DNA of 32,000 bases from an uncultured Acidobacteriota bacterium (GTDB taxonomy: Bacteria > Acidobacteriota > Terriglobia > 20CM-2-55-15): the NCBI GenBank assembly GCA_963738025.1, contig CAVTWA010000005.1:192502-224501 (forward strand), in the 5' to 3' direction. Shown one piece after another: positions 1 through 13,922 of this stretch; position 1 is the first letter of the stretch; every line of letters starts with the position of its first letter. Below the pieces are notes generated by a model, which did not search any database, had not been told where the DNA came from, and saw only the letters and a program-made list of their open reading frames with translations. A program made the translations under genes and the position numbers.

Positions 1-777
1 ATTCCTGTAACTTATGAGTTCGATTCCGGATTTCCTAATGAGATCGCGAATGTCCTGGCCAGTCAGGATCTTCAGTTCGCGTTCTCGTTGTTCCAGAAGC
101 CTGGTCGGCGTTTTATGAAGATCGTCGTCAAGATAACCAGGATGGCACATGACTTCATGTGCACCAGGAGCCAGATCTCGAATGATACTCCCAAATGCCT
201 CGAGGTCCAAAAAACCAGTTTCTGCGACTCCATAAAAACGGTCGGGGCCCGCCATTGCATTCGGCAGGCAGCGCTTCCAGGCGAGCCGTGCACCTGCGGC
301 AAACATGTATTGCTGGAGGATCGCGGCGCGCGCGTTCGGATAGCGGCGCAGCAGCGGCAACAAGCGGGGTGTTTTCGCGTTCATTGTCCGAATCGCGCGG
401 ATCCCATATTCCGGAGCCACCGTACGAACGATTTTCCAAACGGCAGGTATGATATGCACGTGTTTGTGGCCATCGAGATGGGTAATCTGCAGGCCGGCGC
501 TCAGTACTTTTTCGATTTGTGAGCGAATCTCGCGTTCTAAATGGAGCCGGTGCGCCCGGAGAGCCAGCCCGAAAGGTTTGTTGGTGAGATTCAGGTGCAG
601 GCCGATATCCAGACCGGGATTGTGTTGTGCCAGTTCCACCGCCGAGTCGAACGCAGAGGCATTGACCATCAGACTGGCGCTGGTCACCACACCGTGCTGA
701 TGCGCGAAGACAATGGCGCGGTTTACCCCGTCCGTGAGGCCAAAGTCATCGGCAGTTACAATCAGCTGCTTGTTCAT
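1..777 (-). CDS. hpnK: YdjC/ChbG-family hopanoid-associated deacetylase HpnK (C-terminal end runs off the window start)
   Basis: Absent from the ORF track because no stop codon lies in the window. My minus-strand translation from ATG 777-775 reads MNKQLIVTADDFGLTDGVNRAIVFAHQHGVVTSASLMVNA...QITHLDGHKHVHIIPAVW...EVMCHPGYLDDDL... The ADDFG N-terminus and the HLDGHKHVH histidine cluster are typical of the YdjC family. The start lies 4 nt after the hpnI stop. Confidence 0.8.
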   Translation of the reverse strand, partial: MNKQLIVTADDFGLTDGVNRAIVFAHQHGVVTSASLMVNASAFDSAVELAQHNPGLDIGLHLNLTNKPFGLALRAHRLHLEREIRSQIEKVLSAGLQITHLDGHKHVHIIPAVWKIVRTVAPEYGIRAIRTMNAKTPRLLPLLRRYPNARAAILQQYMFAAGARLAWKRCLPNAMAGPDRFYGVAETGFLDLEAFGSIIRDLAPGAHEVMCHPGYLDDDLHKTPTRLLEQRERELKILTGQDIRDLIRKSGIELISYRN

Positions 778-780
778 GAG

Positions 781-1923
781 TCAGACCGCGCGTAATTTTC
801 CATTCACAAGCTCGAATCGCTTTCCGCGCCAGATGACCTGCCTGCCCGCGTAACAGAAAATCCACACCGCGAGGGCCGCAATGTCCCGAAACGGGAGCAG
901 CCAAAGATAAAGAAAGGGCCTGGAATCGCGTAGCACGCGAACATTGATCGTCAGCAGCACAGCGTACCTGAGGACTAATGCCGATGCGAATAAAAACCAC
1001 GCCCATGTGACGGCCGGCAGGAGAGCTATCGTAAGCAGTCCCCAGGGAATTGCGAACGTGAATAGCAATCCCAGGTAGCCGCCCGGCCGCGATGTACGAA
1101 TGGCTCTCGCCCAGCGAAGTTGGTGCTGAACAAATTCTTTCAAGGAATACCGCGGGAGGTAATGATCCACGACGCAATCTGCGAGTTGAACGCTCAGGCC
1201 AGCCTGCGAGATGCGATAGCCGAGCTGATAATCATCGGCCAGGTAGTCTGCCAACGGGGTGAAGCCACCGACCGCATCCAGTGCGCCGCGCGAGAACGCC
1301 AGCGTCGATCCCAATCCGAATCGCAGTTCCCCTTCCAACCGCTTCGCGCACAGAACACCAGGGACAAAGTCGGAGCTGATCCCCAGTGATTCGAGTTTTG
1401 AACCCAGGCTGGCTGAAGCTATGCCTCGATAAAGGCAAGTCACCATGCCGACGGAGTCATTTTTCAACGGCGCCACGACTCGACGAACATAATCATCGGG
1501 GACGTGGATATCGCTGTCGTTGATCAATATGAACTTGTGACGGGCGTGAGGCAGCATCTGGACGAGGTTACTGATTTTCAGGTTGGTTCCCAACTGGTCC
1601 GGGCAGGGGACCAGCTTCATGTGAACGTCAGGGAACTCGGTCATCACCTGTTGCACGACAGGTATGATTGCGTCGGCCGGATCTGCAACACCAAAGATGA
1701 TTTCAAATACCGGATAGTCCTGGATGCAGTGGCTGCGCAAGCTCGTATATGCGTGCGGGTCCATGCCGCAAAGCGGTTTCAATATCGAAACAGGAGGCGT
1801 GAATTCCGTAGTGCCCGGGTCCGGCTCCCGCCGTCCAGATGCCACGGCGCTCCACAGAGAAAATAGACAATAACCGATGCTGCAAAGTGTTCCGACTATA
1901 CAAAGAATCGCCAAAACAATCAT
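781..1923 (-). CDS. hpnI: Hopanoid-associated family-2 glycosyltransferase (HpnI-like, ceramide-glucosyltransferase-like fold)
   Basis: 380-aa ORF with an N-terminal TM helix and a GT core (VSILKPLCG, ILINDSDIHV with a DxD-like DSD, QLRWARAIR), followed by C-terminal TM helices. ATG at 1923. It sits between the EamA pair and hpnK, in the context of hpnJ and hpnK. Confidence 0.8.
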   Translation of the reverse strand: MIVLAILCIVGTLCSIGYCLFSLWSAVASGRREPDPGTTEFTPPVSILKPLCGMDPHAYTSLRSHCIQDYPVFEIIFGVADPADAIIPVVQQVMTEFPDVHMKLVPCPDQLGTNLKISNLVQMLPHARHKFILINDSDIHVPDDYVRRVVAPLKNDSVGMVTCLYRGIASASLGSKLESLGISSDFVPGVLCAKRLEGELRFGLGSTLAFSRGALDAVGGFTPLADYLADDYQLGYRISQAGLSVQLADCVVDHYLPRYSLKEFVQHQLRWARAIRTSRPGGYLGLLFTFAIPWGLLTIALLPAVTWAWFLFASALVLRYAVLLTINVRVLRDSRPFLYLWLLPFRDIAALAVWIFCYAGRQVIWRGKRFELVNGKLRAV

Positions 1924-1932
1924 CGCGGCGTT

Positions 1933-2301
1933 TTAACTGAAGGAAAGCAGGGCAACGCCGATGCATACCAGAACGACGCCTGCCCAGCGAATGGGCGCGA
2001 CTTTTTCGTTAAGGAGGAATTTCGCGCCAAAAGCGCCCGTCACATAGCTCAACGCAGTCGCGGGTACTACGAGACTGGCATCTGCCCATGACAGCAGCGC
2101 CAGAAGCGAGAAAAATGCAATCGCCATGAGGCCGATACCTAACCACATCCAGCCCAGACGGAAGGCGCGCCCCAGCATGGGCAAAACCACAGAAGGCCTG
2201 AAACTCTGAACCTCGCCGATTCTTTTCATCGCGTACGTCACACAGATATCGCCGGCCGTGCCCGTCAGAACCACGATCCCGATGAAAACCCAGAGACGCA
2301 T
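1933..2301 (-). CDS. Half-size EamA/DMT-superfamily membrane protein (about 4 TM), paralog of the upstream gene
   Basis: The track ORF is 1933-2379. I place the start at ATG 2301 (MRLWVFIGIVVLTGTAGD...), 2 nt after the upstream stop (2304-2306). The protein is hydrophobic and about 122 aa. Its C-terminal signature NEKVAPIRWAGVVLVCIGVALL parallels GETVSPMRWMGVLLICAGVALV in the neighbouring gene. Confidence 0.6.
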   Translation of the reverse strand: MRLWVFIGIVVLTGTAGDICVTYAMKRIGEVQSFRPSVVLPMLGRAFRLGWMWLGIGLMAIAFFSLLALLSWADASLVVPATALSYVTGAFGAKFLLNEKVAPIRWAGVVLVCIGVALLSFS

Positions 2302-2303
2302 GT

Positions 2304-2735
2304 TCAATCTCCGATGGTACGCGGTGCGGTTCCACCAACCAGAGCGACGCCCGCGCAGATCAAAAGGACGCCCATCCACCGCATCGGTGAAACAGTTTCA
2401 CCAAGTAAAAAGTAACTGAGCACCGCGACGAACGCATAGCCGATGGCGCAGACCGGTTGCACGTAGCTGAAATCTGCCCGGGAAAGGAGAAGCAGGTATG
2501 AAATGAAAAAAATCAGGAAGCTCAGAATTCCGGTCCATATGGTGCCCGACGTGAAAGTCCTGACAAAAACGGCCAGCAGGGCCGAAGGCGAATAATTCTT
2601 AATTGCACCTACTTCTTTCATCCCCTTGCTCAGCAGAACATTGCCCAGGGCGCTGAAAAACACCACGGACACAATGAGCGAGTAGGTTTTGGAATTCATG
2701 CTGCTGACATCGCGAACCGCAGCTGTTGGTTGCAT
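2304..2735 (-). CDS. Half-size EamA/DMT-superfamily membrane protein (about 4 TM)
   Basis: The track ORF is 2304-2789. Its first 14 codons would overlap hpnJ, so the likely starts are ATG 2735 or ATG 2699 (MNSKTYSLIVSVVFFSALGNVLLSKGMKEVG...). I cannot choose between them because neither has a clear SD. It shares a LLSxADxSxVxP motif with the downstream paralog. Confidence 0.6.
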   Translation of the reverse strand: MQPTAAVRDVSSMNSKTYSLIVSVVFFSALGNVLLSKGMKEVGAIKNYSPSALLAVFVRTFTSGTIWTGILSFLIFFISYLLLLSRADFSYVQPVCAIGYAFVAVLSYFLLGETVSPMRWMGVLLICAGVALVGGTAPRTIGD

Positions 2736-2746
2736 ACCGCTGTACT

Positions 2747-4205
2747 CTAGGAGGAAGGAAGTTCCTGTCGCTTTCTTGCGTACTTCCAACGCTCGGAGCG
2801 CACGCGCATGTATTCCACCGCTTCTTCGTAGAGCCGTTGCCGCTCATTCGAGTCCCACAGGGCGTCGCGCACAATGCGCCAGACGACTCGCGGCCTGAAA
2901 TAGTAGGAATCGTAGAACCGATTGACAGCTGCCATCATTTCTTCGCGAGGCAGCCCCGGGTATGCGATATGAGGAAGTTGATGGCCTCCACTGTCCGCTG
3001 CAGCTTCGCCGGACATGAAGTTGTTGCCGGCGAGTTGGTTGTACAGTTCCGTCCCCGCGTATGCGTGAGCGATGGACACCTGGATCGTTTCCGTATCCAG
3101 TTCTTTAGCGAAATCGAGTGTTCGCTTTATCGTTTCACGAGTTTCGCCCGGCAATCCGATGATGAAGTCACCATGGATCCGAATGCCGACCTTCTTGCAA
3201 TTCCTGGTGAATTCGCGAGCCTGTTCGACTGTCGCGCCTTTTTTGATGTTTTTCAGAATCTGGGGATCTCCCGATTCATAACCTACGATGAAAAGACGCG
3301 CGCCCGAGTCCGCCATCGCCTTCAGAGTCTCGTAGTCGCTATTCACGCGCGCCGTGCACGACCAGCGGAACTTCAGCGGCTTCAGCTTCGCACAAACATC
3401 AAGGACTCGATCTTTCCGGATGTTGAAGGTGTCATCGTCGAAGAAGAACTCCTTCGCCTGCGGGAACAGCTGCAGCGCCTGCTTTACTTCGCGCGCGACA
3501 TTCTCACTTGAACGCGTACGCCAGGCATGGCCCGATAAAGTCTGTGGCCATAGACAAAAAGTGCACATTGCCGGGCAGCCACGCGACGTATAGAAAGCAA
3601 CGTAGGGATGCAGCAGAAAAGGAACGTTGTAATTTTCAATCTTGAGGTCGCGTTTGTACACTTCCGTAGCGAAAGGCAGCTGGTCGAGATCTTCGGTTTG
3701 CAGCTGCGGCCGGGAAGGGTTCAGCCGCAGGCGGCCATTCTCCAGATAACCGGCGCCAGCAATCTCGCTCAAAGGCTTGCCCTTGGCATACTCGACGACG
3801 GCGTGATCGAACTCGCCGCTGACAATGAAATCGATTTCCGGATTGCTGATCAGACAGTCCGGCTTGATCTGTACGGGCGGCCCGACGAAGGCCACTTTCA
3901 AGCTTCGGCCTGACCTGCTTCATCTGCCGTACCATGGCAACGTCATTTGCGAATCCAACCGTCGATGTGAACAGCACCAGAAACTCATAGTCTCGAGCGA
4001 TCTGGATTGTTTCTTCGGGTGTGACATGATGCGATGGCGCATCCAGCAGCCGGCTGCCCGGCAACATCCCAGCTGGATAGCTCAGCCAGACCGGATACCA
4101 GAACGACTCGATTTCGCGGGTCGCCGGCCAGCGCGAGCTTGCGCCGCCATCAAAGTTCTTGAAACTGGGAGGATTCAACAAAAGAGTTTTCATTACGGAC
4201 GGCAT
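2747..4205 (-). pseudogene. hpnJ: B12-binding radical SAM protein HpnJ, split by an apparent +1 frameshift near 3900-3906 (true pseudogene or sequencing/assembly error)
   Basis: The N-terminal part lies in ORF 3636-4205 (M..MKTLLLNPPSFKNFDGGASSRWPATREIESFWYPVWLSYPAG...DVAMVRQMKQVRPKL). The remainder lies in ORF 2747-3901 (KVAFVGPPVQIKPD...YTSRGCPAMCTFCLWP with CxxxCxxC). The two frames join cleanly as ...RPKL/KVAFVG if one nucleotide in ccgaagCTTGaaagtg is ignored. Confidence 0.8.
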
Positions 4206-4230
4206 AAGCGATCTATTCTACGCTGGAAGT

Positions 4231-4303
4231 CTGGGGACGGCGTACTAAATTACCTGAATTGGACTTCAAGCCAGGTGATTTACTGACTTAGTGCGCGCCC
4301 CAG
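4231..4303. repeat. Degenerate copy of palindromic repeat family A (intergenic TolC-hpnJ)
   Basis: The sequence ctggggacggcgtactaaattacctgaatt...ccaggtgatttactgacttagtgcgcgccccag resembles GGGGACGGTTGCCTAAATCACCTAAATT in the copies at 9584 and 12814. The outer ctgggg/ccccag and inner cctg/cagg segments pair. It starts 1 nt after the TolC stop codon (4305-4307). Confidence 0.6.
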
Positions 4304-4304
4304 A

Positions 4305-5609
4305 TTATTGATAGATCTTCGTAAGGTCGCCGGTTGTGCTGAGAACGTCCAACTGCGCTTTCTGACGATCGTAGTCGGCATCCAGATAGGCGAGCCACTT
4401 TTCGTTTTCATCCAACCTGGCGCGCTCGATATCGCGGCTGTTGGCCCGCCCCTCCATGAAGTTCGCCTGGATGATCTTTACGTTTTCTTGAGCAACTTCC
4501 AGCTCAAGGCGTGCAACTTCGCGGGCCGCGTCGAGTTCGCGCACGCGGTAATACTGGCGTGAGGCTTCGAGTTCGAGCGTCTGGCGTTTATTGCGTAATT
4601 CCATTTCCGACGCGTTCAGTTCGCTCTTCGCGAACGCGATGTTGGCGGACCGCTGCGCACTGATCAGAGGGATTCTGATCTGGAGCCCAACGGTGAAGTT
4701 ATTCGCCTGGAACTGCCGGTAATAGTTTTGGAAGTTGTTATACCGGCCAAACACGCCGTATTCGCCCACCGCGTCGATTGTCGGCCACTTGGTCTTGATT
4801 TGACCGGCAACGAGATGTTCTTTCGCTCTGCGATCGTATTCGCTCTGGCGCAAATCGAGGCTTCTTTCGACAGCGCGATCGACAATGTCCCGTTCGCGCT
4901 CGGTTGCCTCGATAGACAGTGGCTCCGTTGCAACGTCGATGCGCTGGTCCGGAGGGATGCCCATCAGCGCAGCCAGTTGCTGTTGCAGCTGGCTTTCACG
5001 GCTTTCGAGCTGAACGATGTGCTGTTCGGTTCTCGCGGCCGCAAGCTCCGCTTTCTTGGACTCAATAGGCAGTTCGTAGCCTTCTTTCACGCGCTGTTGA
5101 GTGAAACTGAGAATTCGCGTGTTGCTTTGCCGCTGATTCCGCATCAGGTCTAAAGAATGACGTACCTTGCCAAGTTCGAGATAGGCGGAGCTCGCTTGAA
5201 GCGCAACGGAATTCCGCGTCTTTTCCAGTTCGAGCCGCTGAATTTCTTTGCGCTCCTCTGCGGCTCTTAACTGAGCCGTTTGCACTGGGTTAAACAAGGC
5301 CTGCACGTAAGAGAAATTGATAATGGAGGGTGCTGCGCCCCCCGGCGTTAAGGGAAAGCCGTAGGTATAGGCCGCTCCCGAGCCCGTATACAAATTGGGT
5401 TGAAACGCAGACTTGTTGACGCCGATTTCTCTTTCCGCGACCTCATATCGCGCCTGCGCGAGCGCAACTTCACGACTGCTGCGGAGCGCCTTGTTCACGG
5501 CATCTTTCAAGGCGACGGGTTGTAAATCCTGTGCCTGAAGCGCGCAGGGTGCGATCGCACAACAGGCGGCGCAACTTGCGAGGAACCTGACAAATCGATT
5601 TTTATTCAT
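4305..5609 (-). CDS. TolC-family outer-membrane efflux protein
   Basis: The track ORF is 4305-5675. The likely start is ATG 5609 (MNKNRFVRFLASCAACCAIAPCALQAQD, signal-peptide-like), which overlaps the permease stop as ATGAATAA. The protein is long, coiled-coil rich and shows the two-fold repeated architecture typical of OEP/TolC proteins. Confidence 0.8.
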   Translation of the reverse strand: MNKNRFVRFLASCAACCAIAPCALQAQDLQPVALKDAVNKALRSSREVALAQARYEVAEREIGVNKSAFQPNLYTGSGAAYTYGFPLTPGGAAPSIINFSYVQALFNPVQTAQLRAAEERKEIQRLELEKTRNSVALQASSAYLELGKVRHSLDLMRNQRQSNTRILSFTQQRVKEGYELPIESKKAELAAARTEQHIVQLESRESQLQQQLAALMGIPPDQRIDVATEPLSIEATERERDIVDRAVERSLDLRQSEYDRRAKEHLVAGQIKTKWPTIDAVGEYGVFGRYNNFQNYYRQFQANNFTVGLQIRIPLISAQRSANIAFAKSELNASEMELRNKRQTLELEASRQYYRVRELDAAREVARLELEVAQENVKIIQANFMEGRANSRDIERARLDENEKWLAYLDADYDRQKAQLDVLSTTGDLTKIYQ

Positions 5610-6802
5610 AACGCAGAGCTTCGGTTGGTTGCAGTTTGGCCGCGCGGCTGGCCGGCAGATATCCAAAAACAACACCGGTCATGCATGAAACAGCGAAGGC
5701 CACAACAATAGACAGGCCGGAGATCGGGATCGTCAAACCAGCCGGCATCAAAGGCCTCAAAAGGAAAGGAATCCCGAGAGCAATCAGAATTCCCAGCACG
5801 GCACCGGTTCCGCTAATGATTAACGCTTCGAGCAGAAATTGGTACAAGATTTCGCGTTTGGCTGCGCCAATCGCCTTGCGGACACCGATTTCGCGAGTAC
5901 GTTCACTGACGGTCACCAGCATGATATTCATGATGCCAACGCCGCTGATGACCAGCGTCACGGATCCAACGGCCAGCAGCACCGCGCTCACAGCCAGCGA
6001 GATATTTCTCGCCGCGTCGAGAATTGCGCTGAGGTTCTGGACGTTGTACAGAGAGCCCGAGCGATGGCGGGAGCGCAGGACATTCTCCACCCCTCGCGTT
6101 AAAGCGGGTACAGCTTCCGGCTGCGGTGCCTGAGCATAAAGGACTTTTACGGTGTCCGTTCCCGCGTAACTCTTCAACAAGCCAAACGGCACGATCAGCG
6201 ATTCGCGGGCGATCTCGGATTGGCCGAAAGTGGCGATACGTTCCTTAAAGACGCCGATGACCGTGAACCTCAATTCTCCAACCCGGATGTCCTGTCCGAC
6301 AGGATCGGTCCCTGCAAACACGATGCGCGCAAGATCCTGGGTGAGCAAGCACACCTTACTGTGGGATTGAAAATCATCACCGTCGAAATATCTTCCATCG
6401 AGGACGAGAAGGTTCCTGATCTTTTGAAAGCCTTCCGTAACAGCGACCAGCGTGACGGGGCGCTCGACGCCGCCCGGCCACCACAGCCATCTGTATGTCG
6501 TGCGTGGCAGCCACTTCCGAGGCGGCCGGTACTTCCCGCCGGATGGTTTCCATGTCGTCTATGGTTATTTCATCGCTGAGCGTGTTCGCTTGCGTGCCGG
6601 TCCGGATCAACTCCGCATACACCAGGTTTGAACCTACACCTTCTATTTGCGTGATGATGTAGTTCCTGCCGACCAGAGAAATCGTAACGACGAGCACGAT
6701 GCAGGCGCTGCCGATGACGACGCCCAGCGTTGTCAGGAATGCCTTGACCTTATTCGCACGAAGGGCATCGATCGAGATTTTCCACAGTTCGCTCTGCAGC
6801 AT
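5602..6802 (-). pseudogene. MacB/DevC-type ABC transporter permease (MacB_PCD + FtsX domain), split by an apparent +1 frameshift near 6470-6480
   Basis: The N-terminal part is in ORF 6377-6802 (MLQSELWKISIDALRANKVKAFLTTLGVVIGSACIV...ATHDIQMAVVA). After gtggtggccGggcggc the sensible reading continues in another frame (GGVERPVTLVAVTEGFQKIRNLLVLDGRYFDGDDFQSHSKV) and runs into ORF 5602-6354 (CLLTQDLA...TVSERTREIGVRKAIGA...LPASRAAKLQPTEALRYE, an FtsX signature). One extra base in the ccc/gg run restores a single protein of about 400 aa. Confidence 0.8.
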
Positions 6803-7641
6803 TAACGGCTGATGCGGGCGAGCCAGTTCATGGCGGATTTGTGTGAAGGGAAATCGCTCTTTTCAGGTACGGACGACACATACGACTTCAACAGCTGCTC
6901 AGCCCTGTTTGCATCGCTGCCCCGCAAGATAAGGACGACGGCGCGGTAGAACCCGACGCGCGGATCCCTGGAATCCACGCGGACCGCGTCATTGATTGTT
7001 CGTTCGAGATTCGTTGCGTCTTTGCGATCGGCAAAAAATTCTGCGGCCTCCATATATGGATCGATGAGGGTGGGGTGCTGATCTAAAACTGCGAGATATT
7101 CAGTTTCGGCGGGCCTCCATTGTTTTTCCGCGCGAAGGTACACTGCCCGCGCCAGCCGTCCCTCGATCGGGTCAATCGCTGCAATCGCCTCAATCTGTTG
7201 TTTGGCCTTCTCCTTGTCGCCGCCGACGATCCATGGCGCCTCGACACAATACTCCATGAGATCCCGCCGGGCTGCGATGTTGCCCGGAGCGAGCCTGACG
7301 GCGGCTTCGAACGCCTGCTTCACCTTTCTTGCCAGGAAAAAGCTGTGACTCTCTTCCGCTTTTGCACCGTAGGCGCGGCCAAGCCATCGGTTGTACTCGG
7401 CGTTTTGCGGCGCCAACTTTACTGCCAGCTCCGCCTGGTTGACGGCTTCATCGTAATTTCGCATCTCGTAGTTTGTGCGCGCCGTCCAGTAATGAAGTGA
7501 AGCATTATCGGGCGAATGCTCGAGGGCTGCGTTTAAGGTATTCAAGGCAGCTTTATAGTTGCCCGCTTCGAATTGAACGTGGGCGGATTGCGCGACGTCC
7601 TGCGCGAATAATAGCGAAAGAAGTATTGTCCCAAGAATCAT
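6802..7641 (-). CDS. Secreted tetratricopeptide-repeat (TPR) protein
   Basis: 279-aa ORF with a signal-like N-terminus (MILGTILLSLLFAQDVAQSA). It has repeated TPR-like helices (YKAALNTLNAALEHSPDNASLHYWTARTNYEMRNYDEAVNQAELAVKLAPQNAEY...). Its start overlaps the adaptor stop as ATGA (7638-7641), and its stop overlaps the permease start as TAATG at 6802. Confidence 0.65.
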   Translation of the reverse strand: MILGTILLSLLFAQDVAQSAHVQFEAGNYKAALNTLNAALEHSPDNASLHYWTARTNYEMRNYDEAVNQAELAVKLAPQNAEYNRWLGRAYGAKAEESHSFFLARKVKQAFEAAVRLAPGNIAARRDLMEYCVEAPWIVGGDKEKAKQQIEAIAAIDPIEGRLARAVYLRAEKQWRPAETEYLAVLDQHPTLIDPYMEAAEFFADRKDATNLERTINDAVRVDSRDPRVGFYRAVVLILRGSDANRAEQLLKSYVSSVPEKSDFPSHKSAMNWLARISR

Positions 7642-8876
7642 CGTTCTGTCCCAGCGACTGTCTGTCCTTCTCGCAATTCCGAATCCATCGGAAGAGCTAC
7701 CGTGTCTTGCTCCGTAATACCCCCCAGGATTTCATACGTGGTCGGATTCGAGATTCCAACCATCACTTCCCGGCTTTTGACTTTATTGTCCTCAACGACA
7801 AAGACGTAGCGTTTGGCGCCGTCGGTGCGCACTGCCGCGCGCGGTAGCGTCAGGACATTTTCGCGGTCGGCAACCCGAATTTTTACATTAACGTTCGTAT
7901 TCGGTAAAAGTTCGGCCGCCTCATTATTGACCGAGCAAAGCACTTCGCCGACATTGCGTGAGCCCCGCGTCGAGATTGTTGTAGGAAGCTGTTCGATTAC
8001 GCCCATCCATACTCGAGCCGGCAAAGCGTCCCAAGTGATTTCGACGATCTGTCCCTGTTTCAGTGAGCCGAGTTCCGGTTCGTCAATAAAAGCGCGTACT
8101 CTGGCGCGTCTGAGATCCGCCATTTCCGCGAGAGTGTCGCCCATACGGACAAACGTTCCGGAGCGCGCCGGAAGCGAATAAATCGCGCCCCCGACAGGAG
8201 CAGTGACGCCCGCGGAATTGATCTTCTGCTCCATGGATTGAATGGACTCCCGTGCCTCGTCCGCCCGCAGAGCAGCCCGTTGCGCTTGTATTTTGGAGCG
8301 GGCGGATAGTGTGTTCTTTTTTTCTTCCAGCAGGTGTTTTTCCGCTTCGGCTTTTTCCAGTGCGATTCTGTTCTGGTCCTGTTCCTGACGTGTTGCGGCC
8401 TGACTCTGTATCAGCCGGCTGAGAGCTTCTCTATCTCGAGTGAGTTGCGTTATCTGTCCGATTGTTTTGGCCAGATCGCTCTGGATCTGCGCCAGATCGT
8501 CAGGTGAGCCACCCTGAAGTGCGGTGTTTTGCTCTTCCTGCGCACCAATGAGCTGATCTCGCATGCGAGCCAGTTCGCTTTTGACATCCGTGGCGTCAAG
8601 CTCGAGCAGCGGGTCTCCAGCTTTTACCATTTGTCCCTCTCTGACGTAGACCGCTGAGATGCGTGTCGAAAGCTGGGCTTGAATGACATGCGGCTCGATC
8701 GGTTCGACTTTTCCATTTCCCGTCGTCCAGGAGCTGAGTTCCTGACGAGCGGCATGGGTGACGGATATCCTGAGAGGCCGATCGCGCCCAGGGCCCGTTG
8801 CCGCCACAAACACCAGTACGGCTGCTCCTGCAACCAGGAGAAACACCCAGATCGATTTGGTAAGCGTCGTCGCCAT
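7638..8876 (-). CDS. HlyD/MacA-type periplasmic adaptor (membrane fusion protein)
   Basis: The track ORF starts at a TTG (8882); the ATG at 8876 gives MATTLTKSIWVFLLVAGAAVLVF (N-terminal anchor). It has a lipoyl-like motif (VKAGDPLLELD), a long coiled-coil segment (QSDLAKTIGQITQLTRDREAL...LEKAEAEKHLLEEKK) and a C-terminal beta-barrel region, which is the usual MFP layout. Confidence 0.8.
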   Translation of the reverse strand: MATTLTKSIWVFLLVAGAAVLVFVAATGPGRDRPLRISVTHAARQELSSWTTGNGKVEPIEPHVIQAQLSTRISAVYVREGQMVKAGDPLLELDATDVKSELARMRDQLIGAQEEQNTALQGGSPDDLAQIQSDLAKTIGQITQLTRDREALSRLIQSQAATRQEQDQNRIALEKAEAEKHLLEEKKNTLSARSKIQAQRAALRADEARESIQSMEQKINSAGVTAPVGGAIYSLPARSGTFVRMGDTLAEMADLRRARVRAFIDEPELGSLKQGQIVEITWDALPARVWMGVIEQLPTTISTRGSRNVGEVLCSVNNEAAELLPNTNVNVKIRVADRENVLTLPRAAVRTDGAKRYVFVVEDNKVKSREVMVGISNPTTYEILGGITEQDTVALPMDSELREGQTVAGTER

Positions 8877-8882
8877 CAGCAA

Positions 8883-9563
8883 TCAAGCCATCTTAACAAA
8901 CTGAAGTCCTGCATCCTTCCAGCGCGGCAACCAGAACGCCAGAGCGTCCAACATATGGCTCCGGTTGGTGTTAGACGTCCGATGATCGCCGTCGTGAAGA
9001 AGAATAATGTCTCCTGTCCGAACCTTTTGCAGCCGCCGCCGCATGTCGTGGCCGGACTGAGGCTTCCAGTCGCGTCCGTTAACCGACCACATCACGATTT
9101 TGGAGAAGCCAGCGCGTTGCGCTGCCCGGAAAAACTGCGGCCCCCGGAAACCGTAGGGAGGCCGGACGCACTCCGTGCGTTTCCCGGTCGCCTGGAAAAC
9201 AGCTTCATCGCAGCGGTTCAATTCGTCGACGATCCGGCGCGTACTGAAGAACACCAGGCTGCGATGCCCGAACGTATGATTCCCGATGGCGTGATTTCGA
9301 GCGGTAATCTCTGACGCCAGGTTCGGATATTGGCGGACGTACTTCCCCAGAACAAAGAATGTTGCCTGGATCTGGTGCTTCTCCAGAAGCGCCAGAATGC
9401 GAGGAGTCACTTGCGGGTTCGGCCCGTCATCAAACGTCAGGGCGCAGCTGCTACCCGCCCGCCGCACGACCTTGCCGAATATCTGGGATCTCGGGTGAAA
9501 CGTTCCCCAGGCCGCCAGCCCTCCACCAGCCACCGCCGGCAGTATGATCTCCGCTGCATTCAC
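8883..9563 (-). CDS. Polysaccharide deacetylase family protein (CE4 / NodB homology domain)
   Basis: 226-aa ORF with a GTG start at 9563. It carries NodB motifs: ALTFDDGPNP (TFDDG), HAIGNHTFGH (HxxxH) and RPPYG. Its stop lies 6 nt upstream of the adaptor ATG. Confidence 0.8.
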   Translation of the reverse strand: MNAAEIILPAVAGGGLAAWGTFHPRSQIFGKVVRRAGSSCALTFDDGPNPQVTPRILALLEKHQIQATFFVLGKYVRQYPNLASEITARNHAIGNHTFGHRSLVFFSTRRIVDELNRCDEAVFQATGKRTECVRPPYGFRGPQFFRAAQRAGFSKIVMWSVNGRDWKPQSGHDMRRRLQKVRTGDIILLHDGDHRTSNTNRSHMLDALAFWLPRWKDAGLQFVKMA

Positions 9564-9583
9564 ACTGGCATTGTAAAGCCGTT

Positions 9584-9668
9584 CCGATAAATTCGGGGAC
9601 GGTTGCCTAAATCACCTAAATTGCGGAGCAATTTAGGTGATTTAGGCAACCGTCCCCGAATTTATCGG
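9584..9668. repeat. Palindromic repeat family A, perfect copy (41-nt arms, 3-nt centre)
   Basis: The left arm CCGATAAATTCGGGGACGGTTGCCTAAATCACCTAAATTGC (9584-9624) is the exact reverse complement of the right arm (9628-9668), with centre gga. The right arm contains the hpnE stop codon (9662-9664). It fills the gap between hpnE and the deacetylase gene. Confidence 0.95.
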
Positions 9669-12784: not shown

Positions 12785-12813
12785 TTCACGCAACCAAAGA
12801 ATTTACCCATGGC

Positions 12814-12888
12814 AATTTGGGGACGGTTGCCTAAATGACCTAAATTGCGGTGCAAATTTAGGTCATTCAGGCAACCGTCCCCGAATTT
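12814..12888. repeat. Palindromic repeat family A, imperfect copy (intergenic ADH-hpnC)
   Basis: The sequence is aatttGGGGACGGTTGCCTAAATGACCTAAATTGCggtGCAAATTTAGGTCATTCAGGCAACCGTCCCCgaattt. It keeps the same core as 9584-9668 with a few substitutions and one indel. The C:G pair of copy 1 (9613/9639) is G:C here (12837/12864). The element ends at the stop codon of the upstream dehydrogenase (12888-12890). Confidence 0.9.
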
Positions 12889-13922
12889 CAGGGCATGACG
12901 GCGACCTTGAGCTGTCCGTTCCGGTTCTTCATATGTTCGAAGACCTGCGGCAGTTCGCTCAACGGAACTTCCCCTGTCACAAAATCCTTCGCGCTGACTT
13001 CACGGCGAGCGATGAGATCGAGAGCTTCGCGTATGAAACGCGGTGTGTGGTGGAAGCTGGATTTGATCGTAATTTCCGAATAATGCACTGCCGAGGCTTC
13101 CAACTCGACCTTGGTTCCACGGGGACATCCGCCAAACAAGTTTATTGCACCCCCGCGCCGGACCATCTGCAGAGCCCATTGCCAGGTCATTGCCGAGCCC
13201 ACGGCCTCAATGACCGAGTCAGCGCCGAACCGCCGGTAGGTGAAGTCCCGAACAGCCGAAACCGGATCGTCGATTTTCGAGATATCCCAGGCTGCGGAAG
13301 CTCCCAGCCGTTCGGCAGCCTTGATTTGACTGCTGCGCTTGCCTAACGCGATTACGTGCGCGCCACGGCTGGACAGCACACGGACGAACTGTAAACCAAT
13401 CGGGCCGCACCCGATGACGACGGCGGTGTCACCAGACTGGATGCCCGTTTCGTCGACAGCCCGGAGCACGCACGCGAGCGGTTCGACGAGAGCGGCTTCA
13501 ATAAAGTCGAGGTGATGTGGTATTTCAATCAGATTCTCGCGCACGATCCGTGCAGGGATCAATGCGTATTCGGCATAAGCGCCGTTGTTGAAAACCAGAT
13601 CTTCGCAGAGATTCGCCTTATCTTTGCGGCAGAAGAAACACTCGTTGCAAGGAGCCGAATTTGCGGCTACAACCCGCATGCCCAGCGGGTACTTGTCGCG
13701 GACGGCATGACCCGCGTCGGCAACGATACCGGAAAGTTCATGTCCGAAGATTGCCGGCGGCACGATCATCCGGGCGTGATAGCCCTGCTTCCAGACTTTG
13801 AAATCCGTTCCGCAGGTCAGAGCCACTTTGACCTGGACCAGAAGGTCCTCCGCTCCGACAGTCGGAACCGCCACCTTTTGAATTTTTAGATCTTCTCGAC
13901 CGTGCAGGACGGCCGCCATCAT
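12888..13922 (-). CDS. Zinc-dependent medium-chain alcohol/polyol dehydrogenase (MDR family), copy 2
   Basis: The track ORF 12888-14096 overlaps the upstream gene. The likely start is ATG 13922 (MMAAVLHGREDLKIQKVAVP...). It has the catalytic-zinc motifs LTCGTD and FGHELSG, the structural-zinc motif CNECFFCRKDKANLC (CxxCxxCx7C) and the Rossmann motif GCGPIG. Confidence 0.85.
   Translation of the reverse strand: MMAAVLHGREDLKIQKVAVPTVGAEDLLVQVKVALTCGTDFKVWKQGYHARMIVPPAIFGHELSGIVADAGHAVRDKYPLGMRVVAANSAPCNECFFCRKDKANLCEDLVFNNGAYAEYALIPARIVRENLIEIPHHLDFIEAALVEPLACVLRAVDETGIQSGDTAVVIGCGPIGLQFVRVLSSRGAHVIALGKRSSQIKAAERLGASAAWDISKIDDPVSAVRDFTYRRFGADSVIEAVGSAMTWQWALQMVRRGGAINLFGGCPRGTKVELEASAVHYSEITIKSSFHHTPRFIREALDLIARREVSAKDFVTGEVPLSELPQVFEHMKNRNGQLKVAVMP

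Follow-up and report, generated by a model that had tools for sequence, protein, structure and literature searches.

The cyanobacterial DevBCA-HgdD system, which combines a MacB-type permease, an adaptor, and a TolC-like channel, exports heterocyst glycolipids and, together with MacAB-TolC, is among the described machines closest to the locus considered here. Acidobacteria, which rank among the most abundant bacteria in soil, are major producers of hopanoids; to our knowledge, the route that hopanoids take to the outer membrane is known only for Proteobacteria that carry HpnN. In this work, we analyzed a 32,000-nucleotide stretch of DNA (referred to as the window; C5:192502-224501) from an uncultured member of the acidobacterial class Terriglobia, the source assembly of which comprises 9.1 Mb in 75 contigs and is 96% complete. 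Within its hopanoid gene cluster, the window carries genes for an adaptor, a secreted tetratricopeptide repeat (TPR) protein, a MacB-type permease, and a TolC-family channel. These four pump genes are part of a block with hpnJ, two half-size EamA genes, and hpnI. The chances are about even, in our judgment, that they encode a MacB-like tripartite exporter for composite hopanoids, energized by an ATPase encoded elsewhere.

A survey of hopanoid genes in Acidobacteria described three gene clusters and mentioned no transporter or efflux gene (PMC5462960). In a microsynteny preprint (10.1101/2025.07.29.667474), which includes few acidobacterial sequences, HpnM, HpnS, and HpnT have been proposed as Mla-like helpers alongside HpnN in Proteobacteria; MacB, TolC, FtsX, ABC, and tetratricopeptide are not mentioned there, and a full-text literature search beyond these two papers returned nothing relevant. 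Conserved transport genes inside the acidobacterial hopanoid block are testable candidates for the movement of lipids to the outer membrane.

Five tightly coupled genes occupy the minus strand between hpnE and hpnJ (positions 4305-9563 of the window). Open reading frame (ORF) calls and matches to Pfam and NCBIfam agree with the identities given to these genes in an earlier note, which had been made from the sequence alone. Together with the genes that follow them, they are:

8883-9563, minus strand: CE4 (NodB-type) deacetylase (Pfam ID PF01522, 115 bits)

7638-8876, minus strand: periplasmic adaptor (membrane fusion protein; HlyD_D23, HlyD_3, Biotin_lipoyl_2, and TIGR01730)

6802-7641, minus strand: secreted all-TPR protein (TPR Pfam matches)

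5602-6802, minus strand, in two pieces (6377-6802 and 5602-6354): MacB-type (type VII ABC) permease (MacB_PCD and FtsX)

4305-5609, minus strand: TolC-family outer-membrane channel with a signal peptide (two OEP repeats, 138 bits)

2747-4205, minus strand: hpnJ (NCBIfam HpnJ), broken by an extra G at 3906

1933-2789, minus strand: two half-size EamA genes (EamA)

781-1923, minus strand: hpnI (NCBIfam HpnI)

1-777, minus strand: HpnK-like YdjC gene (YdjC)

Upstream of the five-gene set lie ispH, shc, hpnH, hpnA, hpnG, two zinc dehydrogenase genes, hpnC, hpnD, and hpnE. The junctions along the five genes read, as had been noted before, as a 6-nt gap, ATGA, TAATG, and ATGAATAA. The last of these is an overlap of the start of the channel gene with the stop of the permease gene, which places the start of the channel gene at ATG 5609 rather than at GTG 5675. 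The adaptor passes as a membrane fusion protein (TIGR01730, 138 bits against a cut-off of 95), and its translation displays a membrane anchor at the N terminus as well as a coiled-coil hairpin ~120 residues long. With this adaptor and the TolC-family channel, the locus has the parts of a MacAB-TolC-type tripartite assembly.

The permease of the locus matches MacB throughout its transmembrane (TM) and periplasmic portion, elbow and coupling helices included, and, as in MacAB-TolC, a long-hairpin adaptor and a TolC-family channel are encoded alongside. The locus differs from MacAB-TolC in having neither an ATPase domain nor an ATPase gene in cis (as in 79 of the 80 species-level loci described below), in the secreted TPR gene that lies here between the adaptor and the permease, and in being embedded in hopanoid genes; its proteins also miss the equivalog cut-offs of MacB and MacA. 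The similarity to DevBCA-HgdD extends to the types of parts and to the proposed cargo, a glycolipid of the outer envelope. It is nevertheless a functional analogy and not the same architecture, as had been claimed: the adaptor scores 53 bits with the DevB model (TIGR02971), against a cut-off of 129, the locus has no DevA ATPase gene, and DevBCA has no TPR component. HpnN, HpnM, HpnS, and HpnT share with these genes the proposed task of carrying hopanoids from the inner membrane to the outer one and were likewise found by hpn microsynteny, but they belong to unrelated families, and the locus has no RND, MlaC, MlaA, or lipocalin domain. Finally, the ADOP family (TIGR03434) also consists of acidobacterial FtsX/MacB-type permeases without an adjacent ATPase, and there are many such orphans in the genome. 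In contrast to ADOP, which is duplicated (~800 aa), the permease of the locus is a single 399-aa unit, and its score of 131 bits is far below the cut-off of 622.

Within the genus, for which we examined the window, four genomes, and related metagenome contigs, the pump genes immediately precede hpnJ, the EamA pair, hpnI, and hpnK, even where hpnE and the CE4 gene lie elsewhere; the exception is G006, in which no hpnJ is seen in the 7.7 kb downstream. The TPR gene is present in all 8 other genomes of the genus. For comparison, we used 40 TPR-centered loci from other families and 80 further species-level loci, 67 of which are informative, with 6 kb or more of sequence on the downstream side of the TPR gene. 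In the 40-locus set, most loci of family f6 have the gene order adaptor-TPR-permease-channel-hpnJ-EamA-EamA-hpnI, and those of f9 mostly have the order adaptor-TPR-channel-hpnJ. A TPR gene without its partners sits between hpnJ and ispH-shc-hpnH in 3 of 6 loci of f4, and the f5, f7, and f8 loci have TPR-permease or TPR apart from hpnJ. Among the species-level loci, the adaptor gene immediately precedes the TPR gene in 77 of 77 cases. The 67 informative loci contain the channel gene in 61 cases, hpnJ in 59, the permease gene and hpnI in 58 each, and EamA in 57, and 56 of them have the complete co-linear block of all these genes.

Linkage to hpnJ is thus seen in the g1 genus and in f4, f6, f9, and f11, whereas the genes are unlinked in f5, f7, and f8. 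We consider the persistence of the TPR-hpnJ link through four different architectures a stronger argument than the counts of loci. The permeases of these modules are 47 to 68% identical across families, compared to no more than 41% for within-genome paralogues. The connection to hopanoids suspected earlier has turned out much stronger than the one sequence could show, with the pump set standing next to hpnJ, the EamA pair, and hpnI in most sampled species of several families of Terriglobia.

The two gene products are also distributed alike. A survey of 301 Terriglobia genomes (E ≤ 1e-15 for the TPR protein and E ≤ 1e-80 for HpnJ) gave family-level tallies, uncorrected for relatedness, that nearly coincide:

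f1 (g1 genus only): TPR protein in 8/34 genomes, HpnJ in 7/34

f3: TPR protein in 3/31, HpnJ in 8/31

f4: TPR protein in 29/47, HpnJ in 25/47

f5: TPR protein in 47/49, HpnJ in 48/49

f6: TPR protein in 49/50, HpnJ in 48/50

f7: TPR protein in 11/14, HpnJ in 10/14

f9: TPR protein in 47/51, HpnJ in 51/51

f10 and f12: no TPR protein and no HpnJ

The CE4 gene, which leads the five-gene set, has a different allegiance. In three genomes with a split hopanoid cluster (G003, G004, and G005), the CE4 orthologue is found directly downstream of hpnE on one contig, and the adaptor-TPR-permease-channel set precedes hpnJ on a different contig. Since the CE4 gene stays with hpnE in split clusters, it goes with the hpnC-D-E block and is not part of the pump. 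The expectation that all five genes are kept together next to hpn genes in relatives accordingly holds for the four pump genes but not for the CE4 gene. The translated protein contains all five NodB catalytic motifs (TFDDG, HTFGH, RPPYG, DW, and LLHD), including the Asp-His-His metal triad, and is probably an active enzyme. We also considered it as a replacement for HpnK and rejected this option, given the HpnK-like YdjC gene after hpnI and the association of the CE4 gene with hpnE in split clusters. In 2 of the 80 species-level loci (L079 and L083), the whole supercluster of the window is repeated, CE4 gene included.

The TPR protein is the most constant hopanoid-linked member of the set. It consists of ~7 repeats, and alignments reveal the family signature WLGRAYG...APWIVGG; all homologues have a signal-peptide-like N terminus and lack a lipobox cysteine at the expected place. 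An NCBIfam search yielded no curated family that names this protein. In its AlphaFold2 model (predicted local distance difference test [pLDDT] score of 91.3), it forms a solenoid of 15 helices, and a fold search of the PDB with this model returned generic TPR solenoids alone (designed CTPR proteins, OGT, and Tom70).

The permease, by contrast, is the least constant member. In the closest relatives (L011, L012, and G006), the TPR gene is followed directly by the channel gene, and the permease is missing from the module; G006 carries an intact permease, 76% identical, on another contig with no ATPase nearby. In G160, a member of f4, no permease orthologue was found, the best match being 30% identical. 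The protein itself, which has no ATPase domain, is built of an FtsX domain with four TM helices and, inserted between TM1 and TM2, a large periplasmic core domain. The intact orthologue encoded on contig L071 matches PF12704 with 108.9 bits (positions 2 to 206 of 207) and PF02687 with 64 bits, and the permease aligns over its full length with the TM and periplasmic part of MacB in 5GKO, 5NIK, and 5LIL (E = 7e-50). The coupling-helix motif ERTREIGVR is kept, and MLVTVSERTREIGVRKAIGA aligns with MLVSVTERTREIGIRMAVGA of Escherichia coli MacB; this helix would dock an ATPase domain. Because the MacB architecture and the ATPase-contacting coupling helix are both retained, the permease presumably still needs an ATPase.

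No ABC ATPase gene is present in the window, as had been stated before, and the nearest LolD-type match on the contig is more than 50 kb away. This ATPase-less state is conserved: a MacB-type ATPase is found within 10 kb in only 1 of the 80 species-level loci. The locus thus offers an example from nature of a MacB-type permease whose ATPase is consistently encoded elsewhere and whose partner is a TPR protein, with implications for the assembly and energization of type VII ABC systems. The source genome has ~13 genes for LolD-type ATPases and roughly 35 for FtsX-type permeases, so that a permease without an ATPase of its own is the normal situation there. It also contains three MacB/LolD-type ATPase genes without a permease, one at C1:127452-128165 and two within C31:223222-224623; an adaptor and one or more such ATPases without an FtsX permease are encoded at C1:126341-129540 (L074) and at C31:223222-226005 (L075). 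The genes at C1:126341-129540 are followed by one for a 355-aa protein without a Pfam family. These permease-less ATPases, the counterpart of the ATPase-less permeases, may be trans partners of the permease; as to the earlier proposal of an ATPase encoded elsewhere, suitable genes do exist in the genome, but none of them is tied to the permease.

Two nearer candidates for the missing ATPase were rejected. In 51 of the 80 loci, a divergently oriented gene ~30% identical to an ABC ATPase lies upstream of the adaptor gene. In L032, the one locus examined in this respect, its product is the ATPase of an ABC-2 transporter that has its own pair of ABC2_membrane_6 permeases (L032:4536-7302); this is probably a separate system, although some cross-talk is conceivable. 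A divergent gene of this kind occurs in most “Candidatus Acidiferrales” loci, with 50 others among L080-L155. It is conceivable that this ABC-2 transporter has a NodIJ-like role in flipping a GlcNAc-lipid. The ATPase encoded near the TPR-permease pair in f5 is MlaF of an MlaE-MlaF-MlaD set. Such a set, followed by an HpnK-like YdjC gene (187 bits with the HpnK model), is found at L065:3740-7244, with a similar one in L067. It lies ~2.4 kb upstream of the TPR-permease pair and is a second possible link between lipid trafficking and hopanoid head groups.

In the proposed mechanism, HpnI, HpnK, and HpnJ would make bacteriohopanetetrol (BHT)-glucosamine and its cyclitol ether at the cytoplasmic face of the inner membrane, and the ArnE/F-like EamA pair would act as a flippase that brings the lipid to the outer leaflet. 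From there, the permease could pull it by means of its periplasmic domain, powered by a MacB/LolD-type ATPase supplied in trans, and the adaptor and the channel would carry it to the outer membrane, assisted by the secreted TPR protein, which would be a periplasmic partner or chaperone. In this scheme, we infer which substrate is moved and in which direction, what the TPR protein does, and which kind of ATPase drives the pump. Such a machine would take the place of HpnN, which was not detected in the class genomes searched. The previously noted absence of HpnN from the window extends to the genome, in which the best match to the HpnN model (TIGR03480) scores 41 bits against a cut-off of 752.

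A broader version of this scheme, which we put forward tentatively and with less confidence than the scheme itself, is that Terriglobia in general move BHT-glucosamine and the cyclitol ether by an undescribed machine. This machine would be centered on a secreted TPR lipid chaperone and would include the adaptor, the TolC-like channel, and the MacB-type permease with its ATPase elsewhere; lineages with adaptor-TPR-channel or TPR alone would do without a dedicated inner-membrane pump.

Several points weigh against a dedicated hopanoid exporter. Members of f5, f7, and f8 own both TPR-permease and hpnJ, yet these are unlinked. The 80 species-level loci are dominated by a single uncultured order, “Ca. 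Acidiferrales,” and, because the genomes are related, the counts overstate the support, showing conservation rather than independent events. Because the modules of f9, of some f6 loci, and of the closest relatives lack the permease, the set is not an obligate four-part unit. The TPR fold, as modeled, gives no functional clue, and a hopanoid role of the pump proteins is proposed here from their genes. HpnN was detected in none of 151 genomes of the class at E ≤ 1e-60 with a model that had no positive control. In addition, MacB-type pumps also serve in peptide and drug efflux. Our confidence stays near one half because TPR-permease pairs occur unlinked in f5, f7, and f8 and because the module has often lost its permease.

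The chief competing explanation is a general efflux or resistance pump of the MacB type, acting on cationic antimicrobial peptides, antibiotics, or other amphiphiles, which would share an envelope-stress or resistance regulon with the hopanoid head-group genes but would not move hopanoids. The nearest solved relatives of the permease, the MacB proteins, are macrolide and peptide pumps, the EamA pair resembles, in a weak match, ArnE/F of the polymyxin-resistance pathway, and hopanoid head-group mutants of Burkholderia are polymyxin sensitive; the separation of the TPR-permease pairs from hpnJ in f5, f7, and f8 would also fit a pump of this kind. A general efflux pump would not, however, be expected from the f4 loci, in which the TPR gene keeps its place beside hpnJ without adaptor, permease, or channel, nor from the family-by-family match of the TPR and HpnJ distributions, which in f1 are both limited to one genus, nor from a linkage that persists through several different architectures. 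We regard this explanation as possible but on the unlikely side.

Less probable still, and in our opinion doubtful, is a periplasm-spanning adaptor-TPR-channel assembly that serves some other process in need of composite hopanoids, such as the secretion or anchoring of proteins or polysaccharides, with the TPR protein as a scaffold, as in PgaA, AlgK, and PelB, and with an optional permease. This explanation would account for the modules from which the permease is gone and the adaptor, TPR, and channel genes are intact, and the CE4 and GT2 genes nearby in this genus recall PgaB/PgaC-type systems. However, the CE4 gene travels with hpnE and not with the trio, the GT2 of the locus passes the HpnI equivalog cut-off (383 versus 310 bits), and the block has no conserved gene for a polysaccharide synthase or a secreted substrate. 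Furthermore, the permease orthologue of G006 persists elsewhere in its genome.

The permease gene and hpnJ are both frameshifted in the window, by one extra C at 6472 and one extra G at 3906, respectively, and the permease had for this reason been suspected to be inactive. Comparison with L071, a contig from another assembly that is 99.37% identical to the window over 12.7 kb, does not bear this out: the two differ by 78 substitutions and exactly two indels, these same extra bases, and L071 codes for an intact 399-aa permease and an intact 481-aa HpnJ. In L073, another related contig from long reads, the breaks fall in different genes (hpnC/D/E, adaptor, and permease), and a short-read contig of the same TPR protein cluster has intact adaptor and permease genes. 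When 1067 long ORFs of relatives were used as probes against the whole genome, ~13 frameshift-like junctions were detected in 153 kb of conserved coding sequence (~1 per 12 kb). Several of these fall together within a gene: one gene of C27 has three or four, and one of C8 has two. Judged by this rate, two frameshifts in a 32-kb window are at the background level. The broken permease is thus most likely an artefact of the assembly, which appears to be rich in single-base indel errors, and, with such an assembly, any “pseudogene” found in it needs read support. Decay or inactivity of the module in the source organism, for which one could cite the disruption of two window genes in one pathway by single extra bases, neither of them a simple extension of a homopolymer, is very improbable in view of the contigs and the genome-wide rate just described and of the intact module in dozens of species.

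The substitutions between the window and L071 are unevenly spread. The adaptor region (7638-8882) holds 31 of the 78 (2.5%), and there are none in the channel gene, hpnD, and one of the EamA genes. This hot spot could possibly reflect recombination or diversifying selection on the adaptor.

As for the head group, subdivision 1 and 3 Acidobacteria have been reported to lack hpnK (2017 survey, PMC5462960), but a YdjC/HpnK-like gene follows hpnI throughout the genus (window positions 1-777; L011, L013, and L015), which is why the source lineage may make the cyclitol ether after all. The HpnK model gives 207 bits for this gene in L013, against a cut-off of 233.

The five-gene set is flanked on both sides by palindromes of one family, in agreement with the earlier observation, the upstream one being perfect and the downstream one a diverged copy:

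9584-9668, between hpnE and the CE4 gene: perfect inverted repeat of 85 nt, with arms of 41 and 41 nt that are 100% complementary

4222-4306, between the channel gene and hpnJ: diverged member of the family, identified by alignment

The element at 4222-4306 folds as a hairpin (-29.7 kcal/mol, z = -4.8). Both belong to a dispersed REP-like family with at least 40 copies genome-wide, across contigs. In the relative L013, hpnE and the CE4 gene are separated by 3 nt, with no palindrome, and the channel gene and hpnJ by 16 nt; gaps of this size (3 to 16 nt) are too short for a copy of the palindrome. These tiny gaps indicate that the palindromes are species-level insertions into intergenic gaps and not ancestral borders of the module. 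L071, which comes from the same species, has no mismatch to the window in the spacer 9564-9661, and a further member of the REP-like family is located in the window at 12810-12892.

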